Assembly: GCF_018977255.1 (NCBI RefSeq) | Contig: NW_024704742.1 | Coordinates: 69,442,001 to 69,506,000, forward strand | Reading direction: 5' to 3' | Source: Callorhinchus milii | Lineage: Eukaryota | DNA length: 64,000 nt | Part shown: positions 2,731 through 48,172 of the stretch, piece by piece | Layout: each line of letters opens with the position of its first letter | How positions within the stretch are numbered: the first letter of the stretch is position 1 | Notes under the pieces: model-generated | What the model was told of the DNA's origin: nothing | The model's database searches: none | The model's input: the letters and a program-made list of their open reading frames with translations, nothing else | Program-made: the position numbers and the translations under genes

Positions 2731-3010
2731 GTTTGGCTTTCTTTCCCGCCGCCCTCCCCTTCCCCTCCTCCTCGCTCGGCTGCAAATAAATGACGTCCTG
2801 AGGCGGTGAGAGTCCGGGGCCTCGAGCGGAGCCGCTTTTTTATTTTTTGCCTCTACGCCCTTCTATTTTGTTTCATTTTTGCAGAATACTTTCCCCGTCG
2901 TTTGATCGTTTCTCCCCCTTAATTTTGGTTGGATTGTAACCCCTGTGGGAGTCCCCCCCCCCCCCCCCCCACTCCCGCTCTCTCGCTGCACGTTGTTAAG
3001 GCCGCCCGCA

Positions 3011-3210
3011 ATGAGCAGCCCGGCCCCGGCCAGCCCGCCCCCCGCCGCCAGGCCCCGCCGCAACCTCGCCCTCACGTCGCTGCTGTCCGAGAAGGGCAGG
3101 TCGTGCAAGGCCCTCTTCCTCACCCCCTTCAGCGGCTGCTGTGAGCCGCCCGTGTTGTCTCCCGTCACCAACCTGGCCAACAACATGAACAAGCTGGCGG
3201 GACTGGGCAG
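3011..3210 (+). CDS. CDC25B: CDC25B exon 1 (MSSPAP...[17 protein letters not shown])
   Basis: ATG at 3011; conserved SPVT.L...M..L.GLG motif; donor AG|gtac. Confidence 0.85.
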
Positions 3211-6200
3211 GTACTCCCCGCGCTCGGCCTGTCTGTACCGTGTGTGTGTGTCTATATAGTGTGTATATATCTATAGTCTGTGTGTATATAGTGTGTGTGT
3301 GTATATATATCTATAGTCTGTGTATATATATCTATAGTCTGTGTGTGTATATATAGTGTGTGTATATATATCTATAGTCTGTCTATATATAGTGTGTGTA
3401 TATATATCTATAGTCTGTGTGTATATAGTGTGTATATATATCTATAGTCTGTGTATATATAGTGTGTGTGTATATACCTATAGTCTGTGTGTGTATATAT
3501 AGTGTGTGTATATATATCTATAGTCTGTGTATATATAGTGTGTGTATATGTATATCTATAGTCTGTGTATATATAGTGTGTGTATATATCTACAGTCTGT
3601 GTGTATGTAGTGTGTGTGTATATATATCTATAGTCTGTGTATATATGGTGTGTGTGTATATATAAGCACTATGTATACTGTGTACTGTGTATATATCCAC
3701 ATGTGTGTATGCTGTTTAGCTGTGTGACTGTACTCTGTCTCTGATATATATGCGTGTGTACATATATATATACATATATACACACATACACTCTGTGTAG
3801 TGTATCTGTGTGTATATATACTCTACTGTATATAGTATATACTCTATGTAATTGTGTATATATATGTATGTGTATATACTCTATGGCTGTATGTCTGTAC
3901 TCTGTCTCTATATGAGTGTGTACATGTATTTTCTGTGTATAGAGATGTCTCAAAGCGCATCAGAGCTTTGAAGTGACTTTTGTGGGCAAAGCGGAGCAGC
4001 CAGTTTTGTACCCAGTCAAGTCCCACAAACTGCCATATGACCAACCAATTTATTTGTCTTTTTGGCCAAGTGTCTGCCTATCCACACACTGCTGTTCAAA
4101 TCCATGCACCTCCCTACATCTCTGATCCCCTCACTCCCCAATCCACAACCTGGCACCTCTGCGCGACTGGCACCAGCCTCTTGCTTGTCCCTTGCACCGT
4201 CCGCCCCACCATTGGAGGTTGTGCTTTCAGCCACTATGCCCCAAATCTCTGGAACGCAATCCCTCCGCCTTGCCCCCTCTCTCCCCTTTTTCAAGTCCCA
4301 CCTTGGTCGCCCTCCCACCTCTCTCTGCCTTCCCTCACCCCTACACCACCCCTCCCCCATGCTCGGGCTCCGATACCTGACTGTTCAGCGATTTGGGACG
4401 TCCTCCTGACGTGAAAGGCGCTCTATAAATGTAATTTTGCTGCTGTTGCTTAATAATAATAATAAAATTTTTTAAATTTTCCTCTTCGACCGTGCTTACG
4501 GACACCTCTGCTCGGAGTCGGGCTCCGCCACTGTTAAGCGCTCTGAGATGCTACCCTGCGTGGAGGGCCCTCTGAGTACAAATTGTTGCTATTGCGTGCT
4601 GTGTGTGTATATACATTATGTGTATATACTCTAGCTGTGTGTTTGTACTCCTCTGTGTCTCTGTCTGTGTATCTCTGTCTGCACTCTTTCTACATCTGTG
4701 TCTTTGTTTCTGTCTGCGTGTCTACCTATTTCTGCCTACCAGTGTATCCGCACACTATCTGTGTTCATAATAATAATCCTTACATTTGATATAGGGCTTA
4801 TCACATTGTTGAGACGTCTCAAAGCGCTTCACAGCTTTGAAGTGACTATTTTGTGGACAAAGAAGGGTAGCCAGTTTTGCATGCAATGAAGTCCCACAAA
4901 CTCCCGTGTGATGAGCCAATTTTTTTTGTGGCCAGAGCTCCAGGAGAAACTCGCTTTTCTTTTCAAATAGTGCCATGGGATCTTTAATGTCCACCTGAAC
5001 AGGCAGACGGGAGGGATTTTGGTTTAATGTCTTACAGAATGGATGAGTCTATACTGTGACCGTGACGTTTTCTGTGTCTCTGTACTGTATTTGTGCCTGT
5101 ACACTAACTTTGCATCTCGCTATACTGTCTGGACGGTGTACACTTTCCGCCTGTCTGTGTACTGTCTTGACATTCTGTGTGTCTATCTTTCAGTACCTCT
5201 GTCTATACCTCTCCATCTTGTGTACCTGTACCACTCTGTAATTGTCTTCATCTGTTCTAACTGCAAAGCTTTCCTTTTCGGGCACTGTGGCAAGATTTGT
5301 GCTACTTGGTCAGAGCAGATCTACCTGGCTCAGGCAGTAGACAACTGATATTGCTACAGAGGATTAATTTGATTCTGATGAGCAGTTGCCAAGTGTATCA
5401 TCTTGGAGCGATCTCAGTCTGAGACCCCATTTTACCTTCCTCTTCTACAGATGAGTCGCCAGTTAATCTGATTAGTGCAAGTTTGAGCCCTTAGGTGGAT
5501 AGCAAATAAGGGTGCGCCTTGTGAACCTCCTCGATGAACATCATAACATTTGATAGAGTATTCCCCCCATTTTCCTGCCTACAGCCCAGACACACACACT
5601 GAGCTGAGCGTTGGTTCCACTAGTTGGAGTAATGTAACATGTAGGAGCAGCAGTAGGCCATTTGGCCCTTCGAGCCTGCCCCGCCATTCAACCATGGCTG
5701 ATCTTCTAATCTAACTCCAGCTAATAACCTAACTCTGCCTTATCCCCATATCCGTTAATCCCTCTTGCAATAAGAAATCTATCTATCTCAGTCTTGAATA
5801 TGTTCAAGGAGTTCAAGAGTACGGAGCTTCAGCAGCTGCTTGCCTCTGCATTCCCCTTTTTACCACAAATCCACCTTGCTTTCTGCTCCTGGATTTTGCA
5901 AAGGGGCCTTCCTCTGCACCATCCAAAAGGGCATTGTAAGCTGAAGTTGTTATCCATACAAATCAACTATTCTTGCATTTTCCAACTAATAATTTCAAGG
6001 TACCCTCAGGAGTTATGCAGAACCATAATACTGCACCCACCATCATGTTCCACTGTGTGTTTAAGATGGTGAGTTCAACACACAAGAACTGCAGCTGAAC
6101 TTGCCAACAGGATGGGACATTATTTTGTGCAATTGGCTGCTACGTTTCACCCACAAAAACAGTCAACCACTTTACAATCTATTCTGTGAAGTGCTTTGAG

Positions 6201-12200: not shown

Positions 12201-15200
12201 AAAGTGATCGAAAAAATGTAGTTAGGACTTCACCATCCATCAGTTGCTCTCTTTACATTAGAGACTCCTTCCACCCTCCTCCTTCCCCCCCCCCCCCCAG
12301 TTCAAAGGATTCTCCAACATGCAGCTTCTGCATCTTAATAGAACAAGCTGGTCTGAAAAGACTGGCCGTAGGTTCATGTCCCATCTGTCGCTGGCTCACC
12401 CACTTAGACTACGGTATGAGGAGGCGACACATTGAATGGGGAGAGCCTGCCTCTTCTGCTCGGGCAGCCCCATTGTCCGGCCCTTTGTGTCGCCACACTT
12501 GTGCCTTCCTGATTATCGCATTGATTTTAAATGCTGTCAGCTATAGGGGGCCGCCTGGTGCTACCGAGACATACGGCATCTGGGAACTAATCTCCCACTC
12601 AGACAAAGGGACTTATTTACATACAGGTGGTTAGCAGAGAGGCTGGAAGCCATCACTATGGTGATGTAGCAATCTTAACCTGTTTTTATTAGGTGGGGTG
12701 TTAGCAACATCTATTTTTAATATTTTCTATCTTTCTTCATCTTTTCCTCCACTCACCCCCCCCCCCCCCCCACACACACACACACACACACACACACAAC
12801 CAATTGCTCTGTTCAGGGCTTGTTCTCAATAGAGGTGCTACCCTCTGGGTCAGATTTCAGGAGAATCGTCCTTTTCTTCAAGTAGTGTTGTGGGATCTTC
12901 AGAATATCCCCCGAAACAAGCATTTTGATAATTTGGATGACGGTGTTAGGGAGTTGTGATTCTCCGGTATCCTGGGCAACAATCCACCACCCTAATAAAA
13001 TTGGTTATCCACATGTCTTTCTGTGGGGACTTTGCTGTGTACAAAATGACTTGAGACATCTCAGCACCATGATTAGGTGCTATAATCAAATGCAAGGATT
13101 ATTATTTGTCAGTCAGTGAGTAGCTGAGAAACAAGAAGGGTTAAACCTCATATGTGAATTGCGGACACAGTGCTAGAGAGTGACGCGTGCTTATGGTGCC
13201 ATGACCCGGCAACATGTCTTCAGTAAAGTTGAGGAGACTGTGTGGGGCGAGGAATCCCAGCTCTGGATTTATTCACGCAGCCTGCAGCCATTCTTTGCAG
13301 GATTTCTTTCAGGTTTCAAGAGCTGTCGTTGGGGCAGATGTGTTTTTTTTCATTCCAAACAATTAATAGTGCAAAGGCTCACCATGCTTTATGTCCCTGG
13401 TTAATGTGAACGTGATCAGTCACTGAAGTGACATTGAGAGTCTTTTCACAGCCTTTTGAAGGTGTAAGTTTATAAATTTGCAATGGAGGCTTTTGTTTCC
13501 CTGATGGATTTGTGGCTGTTGTGGTGATTTTAAAATCCCTATAAACCTACATTGACATTGTCTTCGGTTATCTTCCTTCCAACTATTTTTTCCTTAACCC
13601 CTCCCTTCCCTCTCCTTGCTCTGACTCCCACTCCATCTCTAAAGTGTTTGAGGTGTTGGTGTGTGCAACTTGTTGTTTTTAAACCAGTTCTGGGTCTAAA
13701 CTTCCAAGTTGTGAAGCCACTTGTATGAGTACTGCAGTTAAAAGAGCTTTTTTCAATCCATGCCAGACTGTCCAAAAAGATACCCATTGCAGACATTTTA
13801 TTACAAGTGTTACCCTTTGTCTTTACAGGTTTGAAAAAGCAATATTGGAATCTGGAAAAGTGGTTTCCAAGTAAGTAAATTTGTTTTATGAATAATCTCC
13901 TCACTGTATGAGTTAACGGTATTCTTACTAGCATAGTTTAGTCCGTGGTTTAAAGATCAGATTGTGTATTCCAGCTTAAGAACTAACCAGACTGCACCCA
14001 AGTCTGAGCTGCAGCATTTTATCCGGTAAAGGTCACGGGTTAACCTATTCAGCAAGTGCAAAGTCTTTGTTTGACCTCTGCGGTTTGCTTAGTTATTGAC
14101 CTATTTTTGGGATGCCTTTAATCTCTTGCCTCTGAGAGTAATGAGATGCAGAATTGAGTGCTCTCCTGACCACTGAGACGCATTTAAAAAAAAAGAATAA
14201 AATTAAATAAAATACACTTTAGAAAACTTGCAGGTTATTTAAGAAGCACACATTGCTCTTAACTGGCTAATGGCAACGTATCGGAACCAAGTGAGTTTTT
14301 TTATATACAAAGCAGATGCAAATGACAAACTACTGTGCTGGAAATGCACAATGTCTTTTCGGTGATTATTTTCGAGAAAGCTTAGTCAATGACTTTAGTT
14401 TAACCCTTTACCCGAACAAATGACGTAACATTCTCTTTCAGGTGCAGTGTTTAGTGCTTCTATAAATGGAATCTTGTTGTTGTTGGTTCATTTTTAGGAG
14501 TCCAGGCTATTTATGGATAACTGCAATCTGGTTATTCCAGTGATGTTCCAGCTACAGTGCAGTCCTGTAGTTCAGTGGGTAGAGCACTCGCCTCAAGCGA
14601 GAGACCTGGGTTCAGTTCCTGGCAGGGCAAAATGTTGGGCAAGTTTCCTTACTCCACAAGCCTCTGTTTACCTTGCAGTAAGTAGGGACCTGGTTGTTAG
14701 TCGATTGGTGGATCGCGTTTCCAGGGTAATAATTTCTTCAAAAATAATAAATTGGTCACTTCTATGCACGACTGTTTGGGACACTGCTGTGCACAATTAT
14801 CTGCTGCTTTTCGCCCACAAAATATACAGTCAATTCATTTTACAGTATATTCTGTGAAGCGCTTTGAGACGTCCCAACGACAAAAGGCGCTGTATCAAAT
14901 GTAAGTATTATTATTGTAGTCTAAAGACTCCAAAAAGGTAGCAACAGCATTGGCACTGAATCTCTGCAGCAGCTACAGGTGTCTCATTCTTAACATGGAG
15001 ACCAGATCTTCAATGGTTGGCTCCTGCCTTCAGTATCTTGTCTTTTTCTTGGTTATTGTGCTAAATACAAATTGTGAATCTGATGCTGTTCACAACTTTC
15101 TTTATTATAGTGGTCTTATTGGACATTTTTTAAAATGCTTCAACCCCCAAAAATTACCTTCTTTTGTAATTGTACTTTACTCTCTTAATCTCCTCCTGTT

Positions 15201-35713: not shown

Positions 35714-35894
35714 ATACTCCATTGGCAAACACGTCACCTTTTGGAGTCTGTTGAGCTCCAAGAAGACTCTGCTCTGCTCTCCCCCACACAGACACCACGT
35801 CACCACACCACAGGCAGCAGTCAGAGGCCTCACAGGTTGAAAGAGCCATTGCTTTGGGTTTGATGTGGTGCCAACCAGAGGATTCTGGGCCTTG

Positions 35895-36024
35895 TCGTTA
35901 CTACATCTCCCAGGGTGCACCCCGGCGGCGCTCAGATCTCTGGGTAATAGACGGGAAGCGGAGGGACTACATCACCCAGCATGCAGCGCGGGCTGGCGGC
36001 AGTTGGCGGAGAGAGGCCGCCGCC
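35895..36024 (+). promoter_or_regulatory. AP5S1 promoter with two ZNF143/THAP11-type (ACTACA..CCCA..TGCA) motifs
   Basis: actacatctcccagggtgca at 35900 and gactacatcacccagcatgca at 35965; ETS-like GGAAG at ~35954; CpG-rich; perfect Kozak gccgccgccATGG. Confidence 0.7.
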
Positions 36025-37191
36025 ATGGTTCACGGGTTCCTGGTGCTCGCGCTGAGCTCAGCGGAGGAGAGCAACTGCCGCCTCCTCTACTCCCGGCAGT
36101 TCGGCTCCGATGAGGTGGGCAGAGGTGAGGACCCGGCGGCGGGGGAGGAGGAGGGAGACCTGCGGGCGCGGAGGCTGGTGAGGAAGGAGCGTCTGGCGGC
36201 GGTGAGCAGGTGAGACCCCCCCGGGTACCCCCTCCCCCCCCGTGTACCCCCCTCCCCCCCGTGTACCCCCCTCCCCCCGTGTACCCCCCTCCCCCCCGTG
36301 TACCCCCTCCCCCCCCCCCGTGTACCCCCCTCCCCCCCCCCGTGTACCCCCCTCCCCCCCCCCGTGTACCCCCCTCCCCCCGTGTACCCCCCTCCCCCCC
36401 CGTGTACCCCCCTCCCCCCCGTGTACCCCCTCCCCCCGTGTACCCCCTCCCCCCCCGTGTACCCCCCTCCCTACCGTGTGCCCCCCTCCCCCCGTGTACC
36501 CCCTCCCTACCGTGTGCCCCCCTCCCCCACCGTGTGCCCCCCTCCCCCCCGTGTACCCCACTCCCCTACCGTGTACCCCCTCCCCCCCGTGTACCCCCCT
36601 CCCCTACCGTGTACCCCCTCCCCCCGATGTACCCCCCTCCTCTCCCCGTGTACCCCCTTCCCCCCTCCCTGCCCCCCCACCGCCCCCGTAACAAAATTGT
36701 CATACTTGACAGAATATAATTCTCATCGAGTGAGACGGCTAATCTGCAGGGTTTTGATCTCCAGGCAAGTGAAGTCACTGTGCGCGATGGCACGTCAGGC
36801 TTCAGAGAAACCGATCCCTGACTTTGGGTCTGTGATCGGAGAGGAGTCCATTGCTGTGCAGGAAGCGGAGTTCGGAGTGTTCCGCCTTCCCGCTGGAGAC
36901 CCCTTTGTGGAGGAGAAGACAGTGCTGTGGATGGGAGTGCTTTCTCTCGGCTTTGCACTGATCTGCGAAGCTCACGAGAACTTAATGCTGGCGGAGAATA
37001 CGCTCAAATTGATAGTGAAGAACTTAATGGAGTGTTTAAAGCTGTTGATTCATGGCAATGACATTTTACTAAAGACGGACAAGATTGAGATGGTTCTGAA
37101 TACATTCCTGCCACACGGACAACTGATGTTTATCAACTGTTGTTTCATTCAAAGCCTGGACAAGGAGCTGAGTACTTGTATGTCAAAGTGA
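36025..37191 (+). CDS. AP5S1: AP-5 complex subunit sigma-1; exons 36025-36209 and 36765-37191, 203 aa
   Basis: MVHGFL...CRLLYS..FG, RKERLAAVSR|QV, VLWMGVLSLGFALICEAHENLMLAE and FLPHGQLMF match AP5S1; AG|gtgaga donor and cag| acceptor are in phase; adjacent to CDC25B. Confidence 0.95.
36215..36690. repeat. C-rich minisatellite (ccccccgtgtaccccctcc)n filling the AP5S1 intron
   Basis: Tandem ~19-22 bp units. Confidence 0.95.
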
Positions 37192-37975: not shown

Positions 37976-38866
37976 TAGTATTCAAAGGTGGAAACTCTGG
38001 CTGATTAATTGCCACCCAGACACAGAGCCCAACTAACTGTTAGCATTCCCACTGCTGTCCCAAATAAGATTATCTAACTCCTCGCAGTTGGAACCCAAAA
38101 TTGGGGTTTTAGTCACTGGAGTTGAAGAGATTAAGAAGCGACCTCTTTGGTTTGAGTGTTCAAGAGATGAACGGTTATGATGAAGGTAGAATCATAGAAT
38201 TATACAGCACTCCTTCTGTGCTCTATAATTGTTTGTTTCTACCTTCAATCATAACCCTTCATCTCTTGAACACTCAATTATCAAGGTGTCACAAGATTCA
38301 GCCCATCGTGTATGTGCCGGCTCTTTGAAAAGAGCTATCCAAATCAATCCCACTCCCCCGCTCTCTCCCCGTACCTGCAAACTTGTCCTCCCCAAATAAT
38401 TATCTACTCTCTCAAAAGTTGTTATCAAATCCGCTTCCACCACCCTTTCAGGCAATGCATTCCAGATCCGAACAACTCATGTGAAAAAATGTCTCCTCCA
38501 CTCTGTTTCTTTTAAAAACGACAAAATTACATTTGTAAAGCGTGCCTCGCTTCACTAGCTCCCTATCCCTCCAGAGAATTGACTACAGGATCCTCGTCTT
38601 CACTTTCAAAGCTCGCCACAGTCTTGCTCTTCCCTACCTCTCATCTGCTAGAACTTTACCAACATGTCTGCTCCCTCTGCTCGGTGGGCACTAGCCTGCT
38701 CCATGTCCCCTGCCTGCTCCACTGTCAGTTGTTGGGCTTTCTGCCCTCACCCTCTGGAATGGGCAGGGAAATGGATTGCTTGTATGAGCCGGCCCAGCAC
38801 GATGGGCTGAATGGCCTTCTGTCCTGTGAATTTCTGTGGTTCTGTGGAGGGTTGCTGACATGAAAG

Positions 38867-41047
38867 TGTGAAATTGGGAGCAAGCGTTTGGCAGAAACCA
38901 CACCAAGGATACTATTAAGATATTTTATTAGCAATTCTAAAACCGCACAAGCATAAGCATCACATTACACCCGATGTAATATTATTACTCGTCGCGCTTA
39001 AATGACTACTAAAGCACTATCTTAACAAGATACACTCAATACTAAAATTCTAAACATATAAAAAAATGATGTGATATATGAAATGTGCCTAAATAATCTC
39101 TAACTGTTTTGTATGTATGTTGGGTGCGTGTTTTAGTAACTAGGAGAGATACTACCAAGCAGGCAGGAAATCGTGACGAAGTTCTAAAGGCTGGCACAAA
39201 AGTTAAACACTGTCTGGCTTGCTGCTGGCTGCAAATGTCTCTGGCTTACTTCTAACTGCAAAGGTCTTTTGGTGGTCCACTCCGGCAAGGGCTGAACTCG
39301 TCCTCTTTGCGGTCCACTCCGGCGAGAGCTGGACTTGTCCTCTTTCCCTCAAAGGCGCTCTTCTTCCTCTCCATAGAGGTTCTTCCTCTTCCTCTCCTCA
39401 GAGGCTCGAATAACGTCTGAGTTTTGGCTACCGATTTTATACTCTTGTTCATCAGCCATCTGTGTTCTAACATTTTTCCCCATGACTTCTTTCCTACTCT
39501 CTGCACTTTTCCCAGGCATTCTTTCCCTATCTTCAAGTTGTTCCTCCTTGTACCAGCTAATGGTATCTTCTGCAAAGGAACGATACTCCTCCTATTCCAT
39601 CTTATCTAGCCTGACCTGACTCCATGTCCCTGAAGTTTCAGTCCTTCTTTCTAACTCTGTCCATGTGACCTGCTCACTTTAAGCTTTTTCTGAGTTTTAA
39701 TCTGCTAGTTGGCCTCCCATCCATTCTCCTGGTCCAGTTATCCCAAGTTCCTATCTCTCCTGCCCGTAGGCCACATGCCCTCCCTTGATGCATCGCAGCT
39801 ATCAAGCTACCGGCCCATCTCTCCTTCCTGTCCAAGGTCCTTGAAAGAGTTGTCACCTCCCAGCTGCGCTCGTTCCTCTCCACCCATGCATTATTCGAAC
39901 CCCTTCAGTCGGGTTTCCGTGCTGCCCATGGCACAGAAAACGCCCTGGTCAAGGTCACCAATGACATCTTGATCATCTGCGACCAGGGCTCCCTCTGTCT
40001 CCTCGTTTTCCTCGACCTATCGGCAGCATTCGATACGGTCGACCACGCTATCCTACTCCACCGCTTGTCCTCCCACCTCAACCTTCAAGGCCCTGTCCTT
40101 GAGTGGTTTAGGCCGTACCTCTCCCACCGTCTTCATTTTGTTTCCACAAACGGCTTTTCCTCCGGCCCCCGCACTGTCTCGTGCAGTGTCCCTCAGGGCT
40201 CTGTCCTCGGTCCCCTCCTCTTCACCCTCTATATGCTCCCCCTGTGGTGACATCATCCGCAGACATGGAGTTAACTTCCACACGTATGCGGATGATACCC
40301 AACTCTACCTTTCCTCCTCTACCCTCAACTCCACGACCACCGATGTCCTGACAGTCTGCCTGTCCGACATCGAGTCCTGGACGAGAGACAACTTTCTTCA
40401 GCTCAACGTGCGAAAAACCGAGGCCCTCCTGATTGGCTCACGTCAGCGCCTCCGCACCTCAGGCGCTGACAGCATCAGCATCCAAGGCTGCACTCTCCAC
40501 CTCTCAAAGCCGGTCAGGAACCTCGGGGTTCTTTTTGACCCTGAGCTGTCCTTTCTCCCTCATATCCGCGCCACAACTGGCACCGCCTTTCATCACCTCC
40601 ATCCCCCAGTGCCTTCGCCTTGCTTCCTCCCTTTCCTCCTTCAAGACCTTTCTCTTCGACTGTGCCTTCAGCTCCCCTCTCGACTCTCTACCCCCTCCTC
40701 GCTCCTTCCCTCCCCTCACCCTGACCATTTCCCCCCTGTTCGGGTCCTGACCTAACTGTCCAGCGCCTTGGGACGTCCTCCCGACGTGAAAGGCGCTCTA
40801 TGAATGGAATCTTGTTGTTGTAAGCGCAGATGGCCTACCATCCATCCCCCTGATCCAGCTATCCTTATCTTCCCTGGCCATGGGTCGCATTCCAGTGTAC
40901 TCCTCCTAGCTTGGTGCCTCTTCACTAGGACTGTGTGTGTGTGTGTGTGTATGCCACATGGCAGTTTTTATTTCTTTAATTCATTCTACTTAATTCATCT
41001 ATTCACTACATGATCAACACTGATGATTCTTATACTATAATCCCACA
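38867..41047 (-). repeat. 3' LTR (38867-39781 plus 40821-41047), interrupted by an L2
   Basis: Aligns to 45362-47085; TATAAAA at 39435-39441(-); AATAAA at 38924-38929(-); PPT-like aaggtggggac at 41048-41058(-). Confidence 0.92.
39782..40820 (+). mobile_element. L2 fragment inserted in the 3' LTR
   Basis: YRPIS, LDLSAAFDTVDH, VPQGSVLGPLLF and YADDTQLY motifs; (TTG)n tail; absent from the other LTR. Confidence 0.92.
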
Positions 41048-41186
41048 GTCCCCACCTTGAAAGTGAAGGAACAGTAAGTTTTCTGATCTCTCAAAAAAAA
41101 ACTTTGGTTACTAACACACATAAAAAAAATTGGATAGTAATATATACAAAAATTGGTTAGTAACACACATCCTGCTTTATCATGGA

Positions 41187-41384
41187 TCATCCTCTTCTAA
41201 TAAGCGAGACCATGTGGGATTGCTATTGTAGACCATGAACAAGAGAGCGAGCCCATCTTATTGCAATTATCAATGCAACGAGTATTACGATTTGAACAAT
41301 AATGAACTATTGTGATAAAAGCCACAATACAGGGTGCTGTCCAACATTATAAACTGCCACCATCTGGCTGTTCCGTGATGGTTC
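41187..41384 (-). pseudogene. Env-like/transmembrane ORF remnant downstream of integrase
   Basis: Acceptor ttgttctttcag| at 41385, then EPSRNSQMVAVYNVGQHPVLWLLSQ*FIIVQIVILVALIIAIRWARSLVHGLQ*QSHMVSLIRRG*. Confidence 0.5.
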
Positions 41385-41411
41385 CTGAAAGAACAAGTAT
41401 AATATGTTATT

Positions 41412-43890
41412 ACACAGTTTTCAACTGATTGATGTGATGTCAACGGGCATATTTCTTGGTTTTGTTATGGTATTGTAGTAGGTAAACTGAGGGGCTGGCT
41501 TTATCAATGATGGGAAAAGGGCCTTTGTGCTTGGAACTGAATGGGTGATCCCTTTTCCCATAATCAAGTACCACTACTGAATCACCAACCTGGTACTCTA
41601 CTGGTTTAATTTTTTTGTCAAAGCATCGTTTCAGGTCTGATTTCCCCCTCCACCACTCCTGAAGACTGGGGGTGGTGTGAGATGTGCAATTTTGTGTGAT
41701 TCCCAACATGATTTGCATTTCCGAGAAAATTTTACCTGTAAAGTGCGACCCTTGGTCTGCGTCCACTTGTACAGGTATTCCCCACCTGCAGATCGCTTCG
41801 CGCAAGAGGAGTTGTGCTGCTGTTATCACAGTATTAATCCTAGTGGTAAAAGCCTCGATCCATTTTGTAAATTTGTCTAGTATTACAAGACAGTGCTTAA
41901 AACCCCCTTTTGCCGCTGATAATGGCCCAATTAAATCAATCTGCACATGGGTCCATGGACCAAGGGGTGGGGGTGCCGATTTAAGGAGCGCTCGCTGTCC
42001 TTGAGGAGGGGGATTATGCTGCAAACATACCAAACACCGGTGGGTGCCCAGTCAGCCACCCAGAGGAGGAGAGGGCTTGCCTTCTTTGTGCCATTGTAAC
42101 ACATCAACATACGGTTGGTATGTTGTCTGTAAAGTTTGAATGTCCAAAGCAGAAGGAGCTGAGCAATAATTTCTACGGCATATGCAGTGAATGTAGCATC
42201 ACCTTCTGGAGACCGGTCACAAGGGTAAAATGTGTGATGGCCCAGGATGTGGCCAGCAGGTGTCGATCGCACATGTCAAAGTTTTTCTCAACCCCTGTCA
42301 GGATGTGGGAGGCAAATGCAATCGGATTCATTTTGCCGTGGTAGTCATGGCATAGTACTGCCGTTAAGCTCTGGTCGGTCGCAGCTACCTTCAGGTGAAA
42401 AGGCTCCTGCGGAACCAGAGAAATCAAAGCTGTGGCTTGTATGACTCCTTGTTTTAAAGCAGTCGCAGTGTGAGCATCAGTCCAAAGTTCTACCACGGAG
42501 TCCTCTTGTCCTTCCAACAATTCGTACAGCGGTTTGGTGAGCTCGGCAAAGGAGGGAATGAGCGACCTTTGATATCCCACCAGACCCAAGAATGATGGCA
42601 GGGCTGTTTTTGTTTTAGGGAGCGGCAGCCGGGATAATATCTTTTTATCATTCGGCGTACGACCACTTGGGGACAGTCGTACTCCGAGAAAAGTTAGTCT
42701 TTTGCATCAGCTGGGCCTTCTTGGGGTTAATTTTCAGTCCTGCTTCAGCCAGTCGGTTCAGTATGTTAGTCAGTGTCTGAATGTGAGTATCGTAGTCAGC
42801 AGTTGCAATTAAAATGTTATCCACATACTGAAGCACACACTCAGAATTCACGCACCCTTTAAAAGACGTGAAAAGCGCTATATCAAATGCCAGGATTATT
42901 ATTATAATAGCAGCCATTCGTTTGTGAAAGGTAGTCGGGGCGTTGTGGAACCCTTGGGGCATGCACGTTCAGGTGTATTGCTGGTTATCAAATGTGAATG
43001 CGAATTTAAACTGATCCTCATCTCTGATGGGAACACTCCAGAAACCATTAGAAATATCTAACATGGAGAAAAGACAGGCATATCTTGGTAGACTAGTCAA
43101 TAGGGTCAGGGAATCACTGACCACTAGGGAACAGGACGGTGTAACTTTATTGAGTTGTCAGTAATCAATTGTTAACCTCCAACTCCATCCAGCTTTCGTA
43201 CCAACCATATGGACCAGTTGGTGGTGAATGAACCTTCTCGAATGACACCCGGTTGTTTTAATGAGTTAATAGCATCCTCTATGTATGGGTGGCTATCCCG
43301 TGGTATAGGATTGCTTGCAGGGTTTGTGCAGTTGTCTGTTAATGGTCTCAATAGCAGTTACCTTTCCACAATCATACTTGTGGAGAGCCACCACTGAGGG
43401 TTGGGGCACCAAAGATTTTTGCCACCGTATTATCTGGGAACTGTATGGGGGGGTAAATTTCACCCTTTTTAATTGCAAACACCGCTTGACAGTCATCAAC
43501 CCGAGCTGGATTTGCGATCTCCCCACCTCCAGTGGGATCCCCTATCCACCGGCATTGATTTGAAAAATCAACTGTCGCCGCACATTTTAAAAGAGCATCT
43601 GTCCCCAATATCCCTCTCTTCTGGATCGTGTTGGTGGCTGTCGCGTTCGGTACGTCTAAAGTACACCACCCGCTTTCTGCCGGGAGGGTTATTTTAACAT
43701 GTGTCATTTGGACCTGATAAAACAGCGTTCCCGTCAAACCCGCACGATTCCATACATTCATTCGGAGCGTTGCAAATTTTCAGTCGGAGTGTCAGAGTGT
43801 GTTATAGTAGCCTCAGACCCGGTGTCAACTCACATAAGTTGTGATGGGCCTCCATTCACCACAGGTTTAACATAAGGTCTGGCTCCTAAT
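41412..43890 (-). pseudogene. pol: pol (protease, RT, RNase H-like tether, integrase), disrupted
   Basis: VDTGS; WRLTIDY*QLNKVTP; LDISNGFWS; FAFTF; MPQGFHNAP; YVDN; FLGLVGY; PIAFAS; GPWTHVQIDLIGPL; DADQGSHFT; HPQSSG.VE. Confidence 0.92.
42865..42905 (+). mobile_element. 5'-truncated SINE tail inserted into the RT
   Basis: gacgtgaaaagcgctatatcaaatgccaggattattattat sits between the MPQG and YVDN motifs. Confidence 0.85.
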
Positions 43891-44028
43891 ACAGGTTCAA
43901 ATGGCATACATAGGTTGGGGGAAGTTAGTGGAGAGGCCGGGACCTGGCAGGTGGCTGTGGGGGGGGGTTCTGAATTTTGGAATGTAAATCCTTGCGGTGG
44001 GACACAAGGCTGAGACAGACTCTCACAT

Positions 44029-45210
44029 CTACCTGTCTTTGCTGTGGCTGCTCAGGGCAGGACCATTGCTGTTATCAGCATTGTTAGTCCATTGGTCAAT
44101 ACTCAGTCCCTGTTGAAATCGTTTCGACCAGTTCACAAAGTCCTCACAGGTGGGGACCAGCCGCTGACACTTTAGTTCCCTCCCTTTGGAGTGGAGCATT
44201 ACTGCTGTTGAGTTTCTATGCCCAATGCCCAAACTCACAGCAACCATGACAGGGTGAGTTGCTTTGATTTCTGCGGGTACTGTAAGGGACACTAGCTCTG
44301 TTTCCCCTGGCTTTCTACCCTGCTTTCGTCTCGGGTCATTGTGCAGCAAGGTCCACGTATTATAGCCAGGTTTTAGCCCTTCTACATAGAAAACCTCCTT
44401 TCTCCCCTCTGCCCAGGATGCCTGGTCTGAGGGCTTCTGACAGCCTACCCATGCTTTAACTACCATTGGGAAAAGCTGGCTCCAATAATCCTGGGCTGTC
44501 ACAACCATCCCTAGTTTAGCCTGAACTTTTGGGTGGAGTTTTGCCCAAAACTTTTGTTTACACATAACCTGCCCGTGGGGATCGGCATGGATACCGTTCA
44601 TTTGGGATAACTCGAGAAGCGCGGAGAGTAGCTGAATGAAAGCGGTCAGGTGTTCTCTGAAAGCTCCCCGCGCATCTTCTAACTGGCACTGACTTGTCTT
44701 AAACCTGGCCTCGAGTCCAGTCAATCATTTCACACTTGAAACTGCATTCTGACCCTGCTGTGCTGACATGGCCACTAGATGTTGCTGTGTGCTAATGGTG
44801 CCAGTTAAATGGGAAATTTGCTTTGCCTGATCACATATCGTAGTTTGATGGTCATTAATCTGGTTCAAGAAATACTCCTCTTGATTCTCTAACTGCTTGA
44901 AGGACTCCCTAATTACCTTTCCTAAGTCCATATTCCTACGATCTGCTCTGTTTTTATTAATGAGCATGGCACAGTAAATCGCATATCTCAATGCTCGCTC
45001 GGCTCGCATTTGTGAGTGAATTGTTGACACCCAACCCTGAATTTCATCAAGCCAATCAATGGCTCCCTGTAGTGGATCTGCATGATTCTCCATGTTCTCA
45101 TACAACTTTTCTAGCCCCGTATGCAGTACCTGTTTCACTATTTTATCAATATAGGTGTCTAACATAGTAGGCCCTTCCTTTCCTAACATCTTGTTAGTCT
45201 TATTCCCCAT
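44029..45210 (-). pseudogene. gag: gag-like ORF (MGNK start, coiled coil, degenerate CCHC knuckle)
   Basis: Lies between PBS and pro; one in-frame TGA at 44725-44727; PCHGCCEFGHW in a shifted frame at ~44210-44254. Confidence 0.7.
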
Positions 45211-45339
45211 CGTCTTCACTTTATTTTGGGTGTATAAATGTGTCTTGAGAATGATTCGGTCAAACACTTGGGGTCCCTTTTGTTCGGGCAGACAGTATTG
45301 CCGTATTGGTTCTTAGTCTCGTGACCAAGACACTTGTCT

Positions 45340-45357
45340 GTCCCGTTGTGGTCACCA
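45340..45357 (-). promoter_or_regulatory. Primer binding site, probably tRNA-Arg
   Basis: TGGTGACCACAACGGGAC, 4 nt after the 5' LTR; 15/18 to the recalled tRNA-Arg PBS TGGCGACCACGAAGGGAC (two mismatches are CpG transitions) versus 14/18 to the tRNA-Trp PBS. Confidence 0.7.
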
Positions 45358-45361
45358 AATT

Positions 45362-46962
45362 TGTGAAATTGGGTTCAAGCGTTTGGCAGAAACACCACCA
45401 ACGACAACAACAACAAGATTCCATTTATAGAGCGCCTTTCACGTCGGGAGGACGTCCCAAGGCGCTGTACAGTTGGGTCAGGACCCGAGCAGGGGGGAAA
45501 TGGTCAGGGTGAGGGGAGGGAAGGGAGGGGGCGAGGAGGGGGTAGAGAGACGAGAGGGGAGCTGAAGGCACGGTCAAAGAGAAAGGTCTTGAGACCGGCC
45601 TTGAAGGAGGAAAGGGAGGAAGCGGCGAAGGCACTGGGGGATAGAGTTCTAGAGCCTCGGGGCTGAGAGGCTGAAGGCCCGACCACCGATGGTAGGGCGG
45701 TTGGGGCGGGGGATGTGGAGCAGACCGGAGCCAGAGGAACGGAGGGTACGGGCAGGTAGGTAGGGGGATAGTAGGTTGGAGAGGTAGGAGGGAGCAAGGC
45801 CGTGAATGGCCTTGTAGGTGAGGATGAGGATCTTGAATTCGATCCTCTGGGGAATGGGGAGCCAGTGGAGGCGAGCGAGGGTGGGAGTGATGTGGTCGCG
45901 AAGCCTGGTGCAGGACAGTACACGAGCTGCAGAGTTCTGAATGAACTTCCCGGCACCTCTCTCCACACCAAGGATATTATTAAGACGTTTTATCAGCAAT
46001 TATAAAACCATACAAGCATAAGCATCACATTACACCCATCGTAATATTATTACTCGTCGCGCTTAAATGACTACTAAAGCACTATCTTAACAAGATACAC
46101 TCAATACTAAAATTCTAAACATATATAAAAAAAGTGATATATGAAATGTGCCTAAATAATCTCTAACTGTTTTGTATGTATGTTGAGTGCGTGTTTTAGT
46201 AAGTAGGAGAGATACTACCAAGCAGGCAGGAAATCGTGACGAAGTTCTAAAGGCTGGCACAAAAGTTAAACACTGTCTGGCTTGCTGCTGGCTGCAAATG
46301 TCTCTGGCTTACTTCTAACTGCAAAGGTCTTTTGGTGGTCCACTCCGGCAAGGGCTGAACTCGTCCTCTTTGCGGTCCACTCCGGCGAGAGCTGGACTTG
46401 TCCTCTTTCCCTCAAAGGCGCTCTTCTTCCTCTCCATAGAGGTTCTTCCTCTTCCTCTCCTCAGAGGCTTGAATAACGTCTGAATTTTGGCTACCGATTT
46501 TATACTCTTGTTCACCAGCCATCTGTGTTCTAACATTTTTCCCCATGACTTCTTTCCTACTCTCTGCACTTTTCCCAGGCATTCTTTCCCTATCTTCAAG
46601 TTGTTCCTCCTTGTACCAGCTAATGGTATCTTCTGCAAAGGAACAATACTCCTCCTATTCCATCTTATCTAGCCTGACCTGACTCCATGTCCCTGAAGTT
46701 TCAGTCCTTCTTTCTAACTCTGTCCATGTGACCTGCTCACTTTAAGCTTTTTCTGAGTTTTAATCTGCTAGTTGGCCTCCCATCCATTCTCCTGGTCCAG
46801 TTATCCCAAGTTCCTATCTCTCCTGCCCGTAGGCCACATGCCCTTATAAGCGCAGATGGCCTACCATCTATCCTCCTGATCCAGCTATCCTTATCTTCCC
46901 TGGCCATGAGTCGCATTCCAGTGTATTCCTCCTAGCTTGGTGCCTCTTTACTAGGACTGTGG

Positions 46963-46993
<31 letters not shown>

Positions 46994-47085
46994 CCACATG
47001 GCAGATTTTATTTCTTTAATTCATTCTACTTAATTCATCTATTCACTACATGATCAATATTAATGATTCTTAAACTATAATCCCA
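45362..47085 (-). repeat. 5' LTR (45362-45393 plus 45963-47085), interrupted by an L2
   Basis: Direct repeat of the 3' LTR; TATAAAA at 46498-46504(-). Confidence 0.92.
45394..45962 (-). mobile_element. L2 3' fragment inserted in the 5' LTR
   Basis: [30 protein letters not shown] motifs; (TTG)n tail on the - strand. Confidence 0.92.
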
Positions 47086-48172
47086 ACTATTTGCAAAAGG
47101 TTTTACATCAAATGAAAGGATTATCATTTCTATTGACATATTTGGTCAGCCGGGTGTCTGCCAGATGTGGAAACCCATCCCATGATAAAGAGTATCCAAA
47201 CCAAACTGAGAATCCCATGCATCCCACCTACACATGGAAATCCCAGAGATAGATTGTTGGAATGTGCACTCTCTCCCTAGAGGGACGCATTGCTGACTTA
47301 ATTCTGGAGTGTATTAGGCGAAGACTGGCAAGAGCCAAGGTTTGGAGACCCCAGAGTGTGCGTTGAGGTAACTGCTGGAGTTCAGTGTTAATGCTAAGAT
47401 GTTGTTGCTTCACTGTAGTGTTCTGTGTGAAATATACAATCTCAATGACCTTTTCTGTGTTATTTTTTGCCACAGGGCTATTGTGACATGACCTTTTGCG
47501 ATCAAATGCTAGACCTCGACAAATTGAACGTTTGCTTTATTGACTGACACAGGAAAAATATCACAGCTTCCATATGTTGTAATTAAAAATAAATCTTAAG
47601 AATCATTGCACTGTCAGAATGAATGTTTTATGCTGTAACATTTTTTTGAAAGGTCTCTGGGGCTTACCAAGCCAGTGATGTTAATGTAAGCCCTGGTTCT
47701 GATCAGTATCTGATGGTTAATTATCTCTCGCCACTTGCCTCCATCTATTTTTCTTTCTTGAGTGTGGCAGCTTGATAGCTACAATGTAGTCCTGTCACTA
47801 AATCATTGCTTGACATGGAACCTTTGCTTAGCAAATGTACTTGGGACCCGAACAGAATCACAGAATGGAAAAATGCCTTTAAAATAATAATAGTAATCCT
47901 TGCATTTGATATAGCGCCTTATCTCGTCATTGGGATGTCATTGAGCGCTTCGTAGAATATACTGTAAATTGGATTGACTGTATTTTGTAGGCGAAATGCG
48001 GCAGCCAATTGCACACAGCAGTGTCCCACAAACAGTTGTGGATTGAATGACCAAATTATTATTACTATTTTTTTAATGGATTATTACCCTCGGAAAGCGA
48101 TCTGCCAATCGACTAACAACCGGTTTCCTACTAACTGCTAGGTAAACAGAGATATGTGGAGAAAGGAAACTT

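Follow-up and report, generated by a model that had tools for sequence, protein, structure and literature searches.

The stretch of DNA analysed here, hereafter the window, comprises 64,000 nucleotides from the chimaera Callorhinchus milii (ghostshark or elephant shark; contig NW_024704742.1, positions 69,442,001 to 69,506,000), and its minus strand carries a provirus at 38867-47095 (Table 1). A sequence-only reading had described paired long terminal repeats (LTRs), a primer-binding site (PBS), a polypurine tract (PPT) and the order gag, protease, reverse transcriptase (RT), RNase H-like domain and integrase in a probable cartilaginous fish. The host assignment holds, and each of these features was confirmed by motifs, Pfam domains and comparison of the LTRs. 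Pfam returned, in minus-strand order, RVT_1 (E 2.6e-14 and 2.6e-5), RT_RNaseH_2 (3.9e-16) and rve (5.7e-12), and the minus frames contain IWLVRKLDG and SWRLTIDY-stop-QLNKVTP across a frameshift, LDISNGFWSVPI, FAFTF, MPQGFHNAP, YVDN, PFHLKVAAT and GPWTHVQIDLIGPL. As argued below, the element is very probably a decayed class III retrovirus, belonging to a family that is sister to the published CmiERV lineage I of endogenous retroviruses (ERVs) from the same species.

Table 1. Features of the provirus and its flanks in window coordinates, listed from left to right.
Feature	Position	Strand	Basis
Target-site duplication, left copy AAAG	38863..38866		comparison with LTR ends of other copies
3' LTR, TG...CA, ~1.15 kb without insertion	38867..41047	-	LTR pairing and copies
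5'-truncated host LINE (long interspersed nuclear element) in 3' LTR; limits approximate	39781..40820	+	RVT_1 E 1.8e-19; empty site in 5' LTR
PPT	41048..41058	-	GTGGGGAC/TG junction identical in L031 and L039
Short 3' region from integrase end to LTR, without env	41059..41415	-	colinear in four other copies
Integrase, broken	41416..42050	-	rve E 5.7e-12
Junction of ~660-nt deletion (second, catalytic-type RNase H lost)	42155..42159	-	comparison with copies
Tether (degenerate first RNase H)	42160..42485	-	RT_RNaseH_2 E 3.9e-16, RT_RNaseH E 2.4e-13
RT and connection, with stops and frameshifts	42486..43310	-	Pfam and motifs
42-44-nt tail of abundant host repeat within RT	42865..42908		23 window matches including itself
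Aspartic protease, broken, VDTG near 43829; limits approximate	43500..43870	-	motif
gag, starts MGNK	43950..45210	-	assigned by position
PBS, tRNA-Arg(TCG), 4-nt spacer from LTR	45340..45357	-	15/18 match to host tRNA gene L084
5' LTR	45362..47095	-	LTR pairing and copies
LINE 3' fragment in 5' LTR (U5); limits approximate	45395..45962	-	same LINE family as 3' LTR insert
Target-site duplication, right copy AAAG	47096..47099		comparison with LTR ends of other copies

The outer end of the element had been placed at 47085. In other family copies, the LTR starts with TGTAAATAGT, for which the window reads TGCAAATAGT, and the end of the 5' LTR was therefore set at 47095; with this correction, a perfect 4-bp duplication is present on both flanks. 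The 3' LTR lacks 8 nt at the start of U3 relative to other copies. At six other LTR loci of the family, the target duplication was exact over 4 bp at L045, matched at three of four positions at L047 and L050, showed no match at L049 and was ambiguous at L046; at L048 the LTR start was not located. The two window LTRs were compared by BLAST and in pairwise pieces, because the LINE insertions misaligned them in a global MAFFT alignment. The LINE pieces differ between the two LTRs and each is missing from the opposite LTR, which indicates that both insertions postdate integration. Identity of the LTR core is 97.7% over 884 nt, and the Kimura two-parameter distance between the LTRs is 0.024 over 1,109 aligned sites. 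The mismatches (38898-39781 against 45963-46844) are unevenly spread, with 7 of 15 in the first 50 nt and 4 in the last ~640 nt. Because of this unevenness, insertion ages of about 54 million years (with the rate that Han 2015 assumed for sharks) or 5 million years (with a mammalian rate) are both soft. Gene conversion between the two LTRs is possible.

Comparison with fuller copies of the same family (L014/L023, L022 and L031) revealed four internal deletions in the window copy: ~910 nt of gag (at ~44654-44662), ~660 nt following the tether, 227-273 nt from the integrase start (at ~42045-42065), which took the N-terminal HH region, and ~280 nt of the integrase core (at ~41635). The earlier suggestion that the active RNase H and the HH region had been deleted from this copy was thus correct. 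The three clean junctions show overlaps of 5-9 nt and would fit short-homology events during reverse transcription or repair. The RT catalytic motif has degenerated to YVDN (at ~42827), the host-repeat tail within RT is absent from all five family copies tested, and the CCHC knuckle of gag, kept in copy L036, is degenerate in the window (near 44270). The gag pieces gave no Pfam family at threshold and no match among the proteins fetched for comparison. The LINE pieces in the LTRs, the repeat tail in RT and the losses from gag and the integrase core had gone unmentioned in the sequence-only reading. Judged from its sequence, the window copy is dead: none of Gag, RT, RNase H and integrase is predicted to be encoded in functional form.

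A search of the genome with the internal region gave 138 matches, relatives at 75-95% nucleotide identity (best 40 of 965 candidates scored), and a search with the LTR gave some 40 loci, almost all of them on the large scaffolds C1-C26 (best 40 of 111 candidates scored). Same-family copies L014/L023, L022, L024 and L026 encode a second RNase H at the point of the window's deletion (PF00075, E 2.9e-18 in L014). The first domain is therefore a tether, as the sequence-only reading had proposed when it called this RNase H dead, and the element is retroviral and not a Gypsy element. Reading the element as a Ty3/Gypsy retrotransposon that has MPQG and a single RNase H would draw on the absence of env from the family and on the MPQG of some Gypsy RTs (P0071/P0072). 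This reading deserves almost no credence given the second catalytic-type domain: in the RT tree described below, Gypsy falls into a separate group of its own (100/100), and grouping the family with Gypsy was rejected in an approximately unbiased (AU) test (p=0.0002). A truncated copy of the family is repeated many times on C179, C187, C97, C78, C497, C1190, C1424 and other small contigs (L024-L030, L051 and L052); these repeats share breakpoints, have host repeats around them and look as if a single locus had been amplified, segmentally or in tandem.

For the phylogeny, RT domains were taken from database proteins and from genome loci, the latter read through with X at breaks. A careful tree (48 rows, 245 columns) and a quick tree (98 rows) were built from hand-picked rows, with 78 of 221 protein RTs in the large tree; L010 and L017, at fewer than 150 residues, were excluded. 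In the careful tree, support was 100/98 for the window family, 100/99 for this family with the CmiERV-I group and 100/98 for both with a Xenopus tropicalis Pol. The chimaera clade lies inside the canonical retroviruses (100/99), lokiretroviruses form a separate clade (99/97) and Gypsy lies outside (100/100). The quick tree agrees. The class III affinity first suspected from motifs is thus borne out by the RT clade with CmiERV lineage I. Pairwise identities of the window's integrase piece run from 65% to the CmiERV-I family through 54% to Xenopus and 38-39% to lokiretroviruses to 33% to Gypsy.

The sequence-only reading had also leaned toward lokiretroviruses, taking QG rather than FG in RT as one of their signs. 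In the accessible part of the published supplement, however, all loki RTs inspected read PFG, more fully PFGY(S/A)NSPA(E/D)F (a pattern taken from the published consensus set, not a formal definition), and a text search of the first 300 of its 318 pages for QGFHN gave no matches, although line breaks may hide some. The QG motif therefore speaks against a lokiretrovirus. As described in the available text of Wang & Han 2021 (PMC7947760), lokiretroviruses are defined by their RT clade, a dual RNase H and an env resembling paramyxovirus F, related to fusion proteins of Mononegavirales; their screen was positive in 0 of 3 Chondrichthyes. An integrase that groups with CGIN1 is a further loki trait. 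Odin elements, according to the accessible portion of PMC9040795, are the env-less sister of lokiretroviruses, also have a dual RNase H and are reported from sea anemones only. A lokiretrovirus or an Odin-like sister in the window would extend that lineage to the chondrichthyans, where the loki screen had found none; the family does share WRLTIDY, NGFW and YVDD-type motifs with it, and being env-less with a dual RNase H is the Odin plan and gives the family an Odin-like life cycle. We nevertheless regard this assignment as exceedingly doubtful. The dual RNase H is common to all retroviruses and hence not diagnostic; the lokiretroviruses have PFGY in place of PQGF, a separate RT clade and a paramyxovirus-F-like env; the window RT is only 34-39% identical to theirs; and grouping the family with them was rejected (AU test with 32 rows, as for Gypsy; p=0.0009). 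Instead, the family is nested among canonical retroviruses, and its sister family has a gamma-type env.

CmiERV lineage I, beside which we place the family, was published in Han 2015 (PMC4422223), who put this elephant shark lineage with snakehead retrovirus (SnRV) in a tree that included foamy viruses. Their inclusion rule was an env downstream of pol, and further ERVs were considered to have probably been missed. One locus in the genome (L009, G000:C15:6258837-6262301) differs by eye from the accessible sequence of their CmiERV_Scaffold 2 at about 3 positions in 1,501 nt, with shared frameshifts, and an env transmembrane (TM) match at 87% lies just downstream of it. The sister family, the CmiERV-I group, has a tether, an RNase H and a gamma-type env (TLV_coat, E 5.4e-11). 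Lineage I and the window family have in common the host, sister positions in the RT tree, the order protease, RT, tether, RNase H and integrase, one visible CCHC knuckle, a short spacer between LTR and PBS and a similar LTR divergence (0.024 in the window and 0.033 as published). They differ in that their Pol proteins are only ~53-65% identical in amino acids, no relationship is visible by eye between their LTRs or gag regions, the gamma-type env of lineage I has no counterpart in the five informative copies of the window family, and the published copy reads another PBS. The latter we take to be of Ser type, whereas the window family has a tRNA-Arg site.

This primer site is common to five copies. 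It agrees with a host tRNA-Arg(TCG) gene, at that gene's 3' end, in 15 of 18 positions in the window and in 16-18 of 18 in the other four; ARAGORN predicts a full tRNA-Arg(TCG) at that locus (L084). The gene was located with a pattern from the PBS of one copy, which gave 4 matches and 4 in the control, and the agreement is therefore not a blind test. Against 30 tRNA-like loci (12 isotypes, many of them derived from short interspersed nuclear elements, SINEs), the best match of the window PBS was 14 of 18. The 'tRNA genes' that ARAGORN reports within the window, at 14561, 23672, 33902, 60654 and 61119, are heads of an abundant SINE-like repeat and not tRNA genes.

No env was found in any of the five copies with a continuous sequence from integrase to 3' LTR (window, L031, L038, L039 and L040), a stretch that is short and colinear. 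Two copies on small contigs end within integrase and are uninformative in this respect. The genome has 41 env TM matches, none of which coincides with a family locus in a by-eye comparison with the best-scored family loci. The family has the TG...CA LTRs, tRNA PBS, PPT and target duplication used to recognise class III ERVs, but not the env that Han 2015 required, and it is therefore the sister of lineage I and not the published element itself. Long gamma-type env frames of 580-680 aa are present on large scaffolds (for example C1:65272303, with 677 aa; C2:91877429; C3:88860109; C1:12445263) and may represent young proviruses or candidate co-opted env genes.

Among solved structures, the Pol of the sister family ranks foamy virus first, followed by murine leukaemia virus (MuLV) and Ty3, with foamy Pol as top match at E 6.7e-59. 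Together with trees that hold no foamy row, this leaves some room for a foamy-like ERV of clade Tu, similar to CmiFLERV. We consider that assignment very unlikely, since copy L036 and the sister family have a CCHC knuckle, whereas foamy Gag, according to the accessible part of PMC5210030, lacks a Cys-His box; the same source gives mostly tRNA-Lys primers for foamy viruses as opposed to the Arg primer seen here; the sister family has a gamma-type env; and Han 2015 grouped lineage I with SnRV even though foamy viruses were in that tree. A search of the genome for the foamy env family found nothing, but its control was equally silent.

The likeness to SnRV itself is looser. SnRV-related ERVs form clade Huo, which in the available text of Xu 2018 (PMC6001957) is the most widespread clade, with cartilaginous-fish retroviruses not basal; in what could be consulted of Blanco-Melo 2024 (PMC11089739), the ERV RTs of cartilaginous fish belong mostly to clade III. 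The window family shares with SnRV and clade Huo the RT motifs LDISNGFWS and PQGFH and the combination of tether and RNase H, and with SnRV and class III a single zinc finger (Jern 2005, PMC1224870, as far as accessible). It differs from SnRV, an enveloped infectious virus, in lacking env and in sequence (~40% identity in the RT palm, 30% in thumb/tether and integrase), and the tree does not resolve the two as sisters.

Several points weigh against placing the window element as we do. Foamy viruses and Odin elements are missing from the trees, and SnRV (P0143) branches from an unresolved fork, not joined to the window family, to which its thumb/tether and integrase are only ~30% identical; the label 'SnRV-like' therefore rests on the tree of Han 2015 by way of the sister family. 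Comparison by eye with the text of supplements underlies the match of L009 as well as the labels of the SnRV and loki rows: P0143 differs from the published SnRV RT at a single compared residue, and loki rows were recognised by PFGY, as in the published sequences, two of them being close to published lamprey lokiretroviruses. Loss of env, finally, is judged from five copies of a family for which 40 of 965 candidates (internal region) and 40 of 111 (LTR) were scored.

The suggestion that the lineage is undescribed in this host group was wrong, as the SnRV-like class III lineage published for this species (Han 2015, PMC4422223) is sister to the window family. The family itself, with its env-less and Arg-primed members, is probably new and unnamed, although of a kind already described in Callorhinchus milii. 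In a literature search that reached only a minority of subscription journals, we found no paper naming the family, a chondrichthyan lokiretrovirus or lamprey DNA in the assembly; published supplements (Xu 2018; Wang & Han 2022; bioRxiv 2021.11.23.469661) may list loci of the family.

From general retroviral biology, RNA driven by the LTR would have been reverse-transcribed from a tRNA-Arg(TCG) primer, the second strand primed at the PPT and the product integrated with a 4-bp stagger. Since the sister family keeps a gamma-type env, an enveloped ancestor may have lost env, after which the family would have multiplied inside germ cells and left many solo LTRs. The later decay of the window copy would have come from short-homology deletions, point mutations and inserted LINEs; on its own it is presumably inert today.

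An RT/tether search of the genome yielded a set of relatives at 45-56% identity to the window. Among them are five or more additional class III families (L002, L005/L007/L012, L006, L008, L013 and L020), with a second RNase H in each locus checked. The closest relatives outside the chimaera are Pol proteins of Xenopus tropicalis, frog and coelacanth (P0046, P0042, P0044 and P0039), with a full set of tether, RNase H, H2C2 and rve; they are 52-54% identical, come from other hosts and carry the database labels NYNRIN-like or Gypsy integrase-like. P0046, from Xenopus tropicalis, is sister to the chimaera clade (100/98). Its identification as XtERV-S was dropped, because XtERV-S has YIDD and a dUTPase in the accessible part of PMC8278194. 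More tentatively, and in our estimate rather improbably, the chimaera families and these relatives could make up a deep branch within the canonical retroviruses, one without a name and not truly sister to SnRV, with several chimaera families using different primers and the window family having independently become an env-less, Odin-like intracellular retrotransposon. If true, this would be a vertebrate env-less element with a dual RNase H, a state reached by loss rather than by ancestry.

Lokiretroviruses do occur in the assembly, away from the window. A loki Pol search gave matches of 52-56% on seven small contigs (C771, C466, C909, C556, C1182, C548 and C364). The two regions fetched, L041 (G000:C771:14500-24499) and L042 (C466:1000-9500), have loki RT motifs, domain order and an env C-terminus, and are nearly identical by eye to lamprey Loki-Lca and Loki-Pma in the available part of the published set. 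The best 40 of 75 loki LTR candidates and the best 40 of 2,099 loki flank-repeat candidates are all on small contigs, with none on C1-C100. Repeats of the window had no match in 32,502 fetched bases of loki contigs, whereas all seven small-contig loci of the window family matched; this control is imperfect, because more than half of those bases are loki element and several ERV-only host loci also gave none. Nineteen public runs, from five organism codes and nine studies, contain 74-96% of the words of the loki element, and in four of them compared with the window LINE and ERV at 80% likeness, no listed piece exceeded 65 nt and none reached 95%.

These contigs are probably lamprey DNA contaminating the assembly. 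That they are genuine germ-line insertions, recently transferred from lamprey, might be argued from their many copies, their loki motifs and domains and the frequent host jumps reported for lokiretroviruses in the accessible text of PMC7947760. We give this only a slim chance in view of the near-identity to lamprey elements, the confinement of the best-scored candidates to small contigs with no window repeats nearby, and runs rich in loki words that lack long pieces of the window LINE and ERV. L041:4708-8781 (minus strand) holds a loki copy with a deletion: it lacks integrase, and its RNase H frame continues without a shift into the C-terminal portion of env. Many near-identical stop-free pol frames of LTR elements, 400-1,800 aa long, are present on small contigs (for example C860, C988, C160, C192, C1030 and C319); some of them lie on contigs that also carry the loki LTR or flank repeat (C122, C687 and C114), and the foreign fraction may be sizeable.

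Elsewhere in the window, GC-rich frames at 2866-3310 (minus strand, near 3,000) and 35755-36210 (plus strand, near 36,000) resemble first coding exons of host genes; the latter lies ~2.7 kb from the provirus.

The window element leaves the host range of lokiretroviruses unchanged, and anyone running a routine loki search on this assembly will meet a persuasive but probably spurious 'first chondrichthyan lokiretrovirus', a warning that is the practical value of the result. The value of the family is modest: it adds an Arg-primed, env-less member to the class III radiation known in the species. Screens that require env, as in Han 2015, would skip it, and the class III group is shown to hold several families in this genome.

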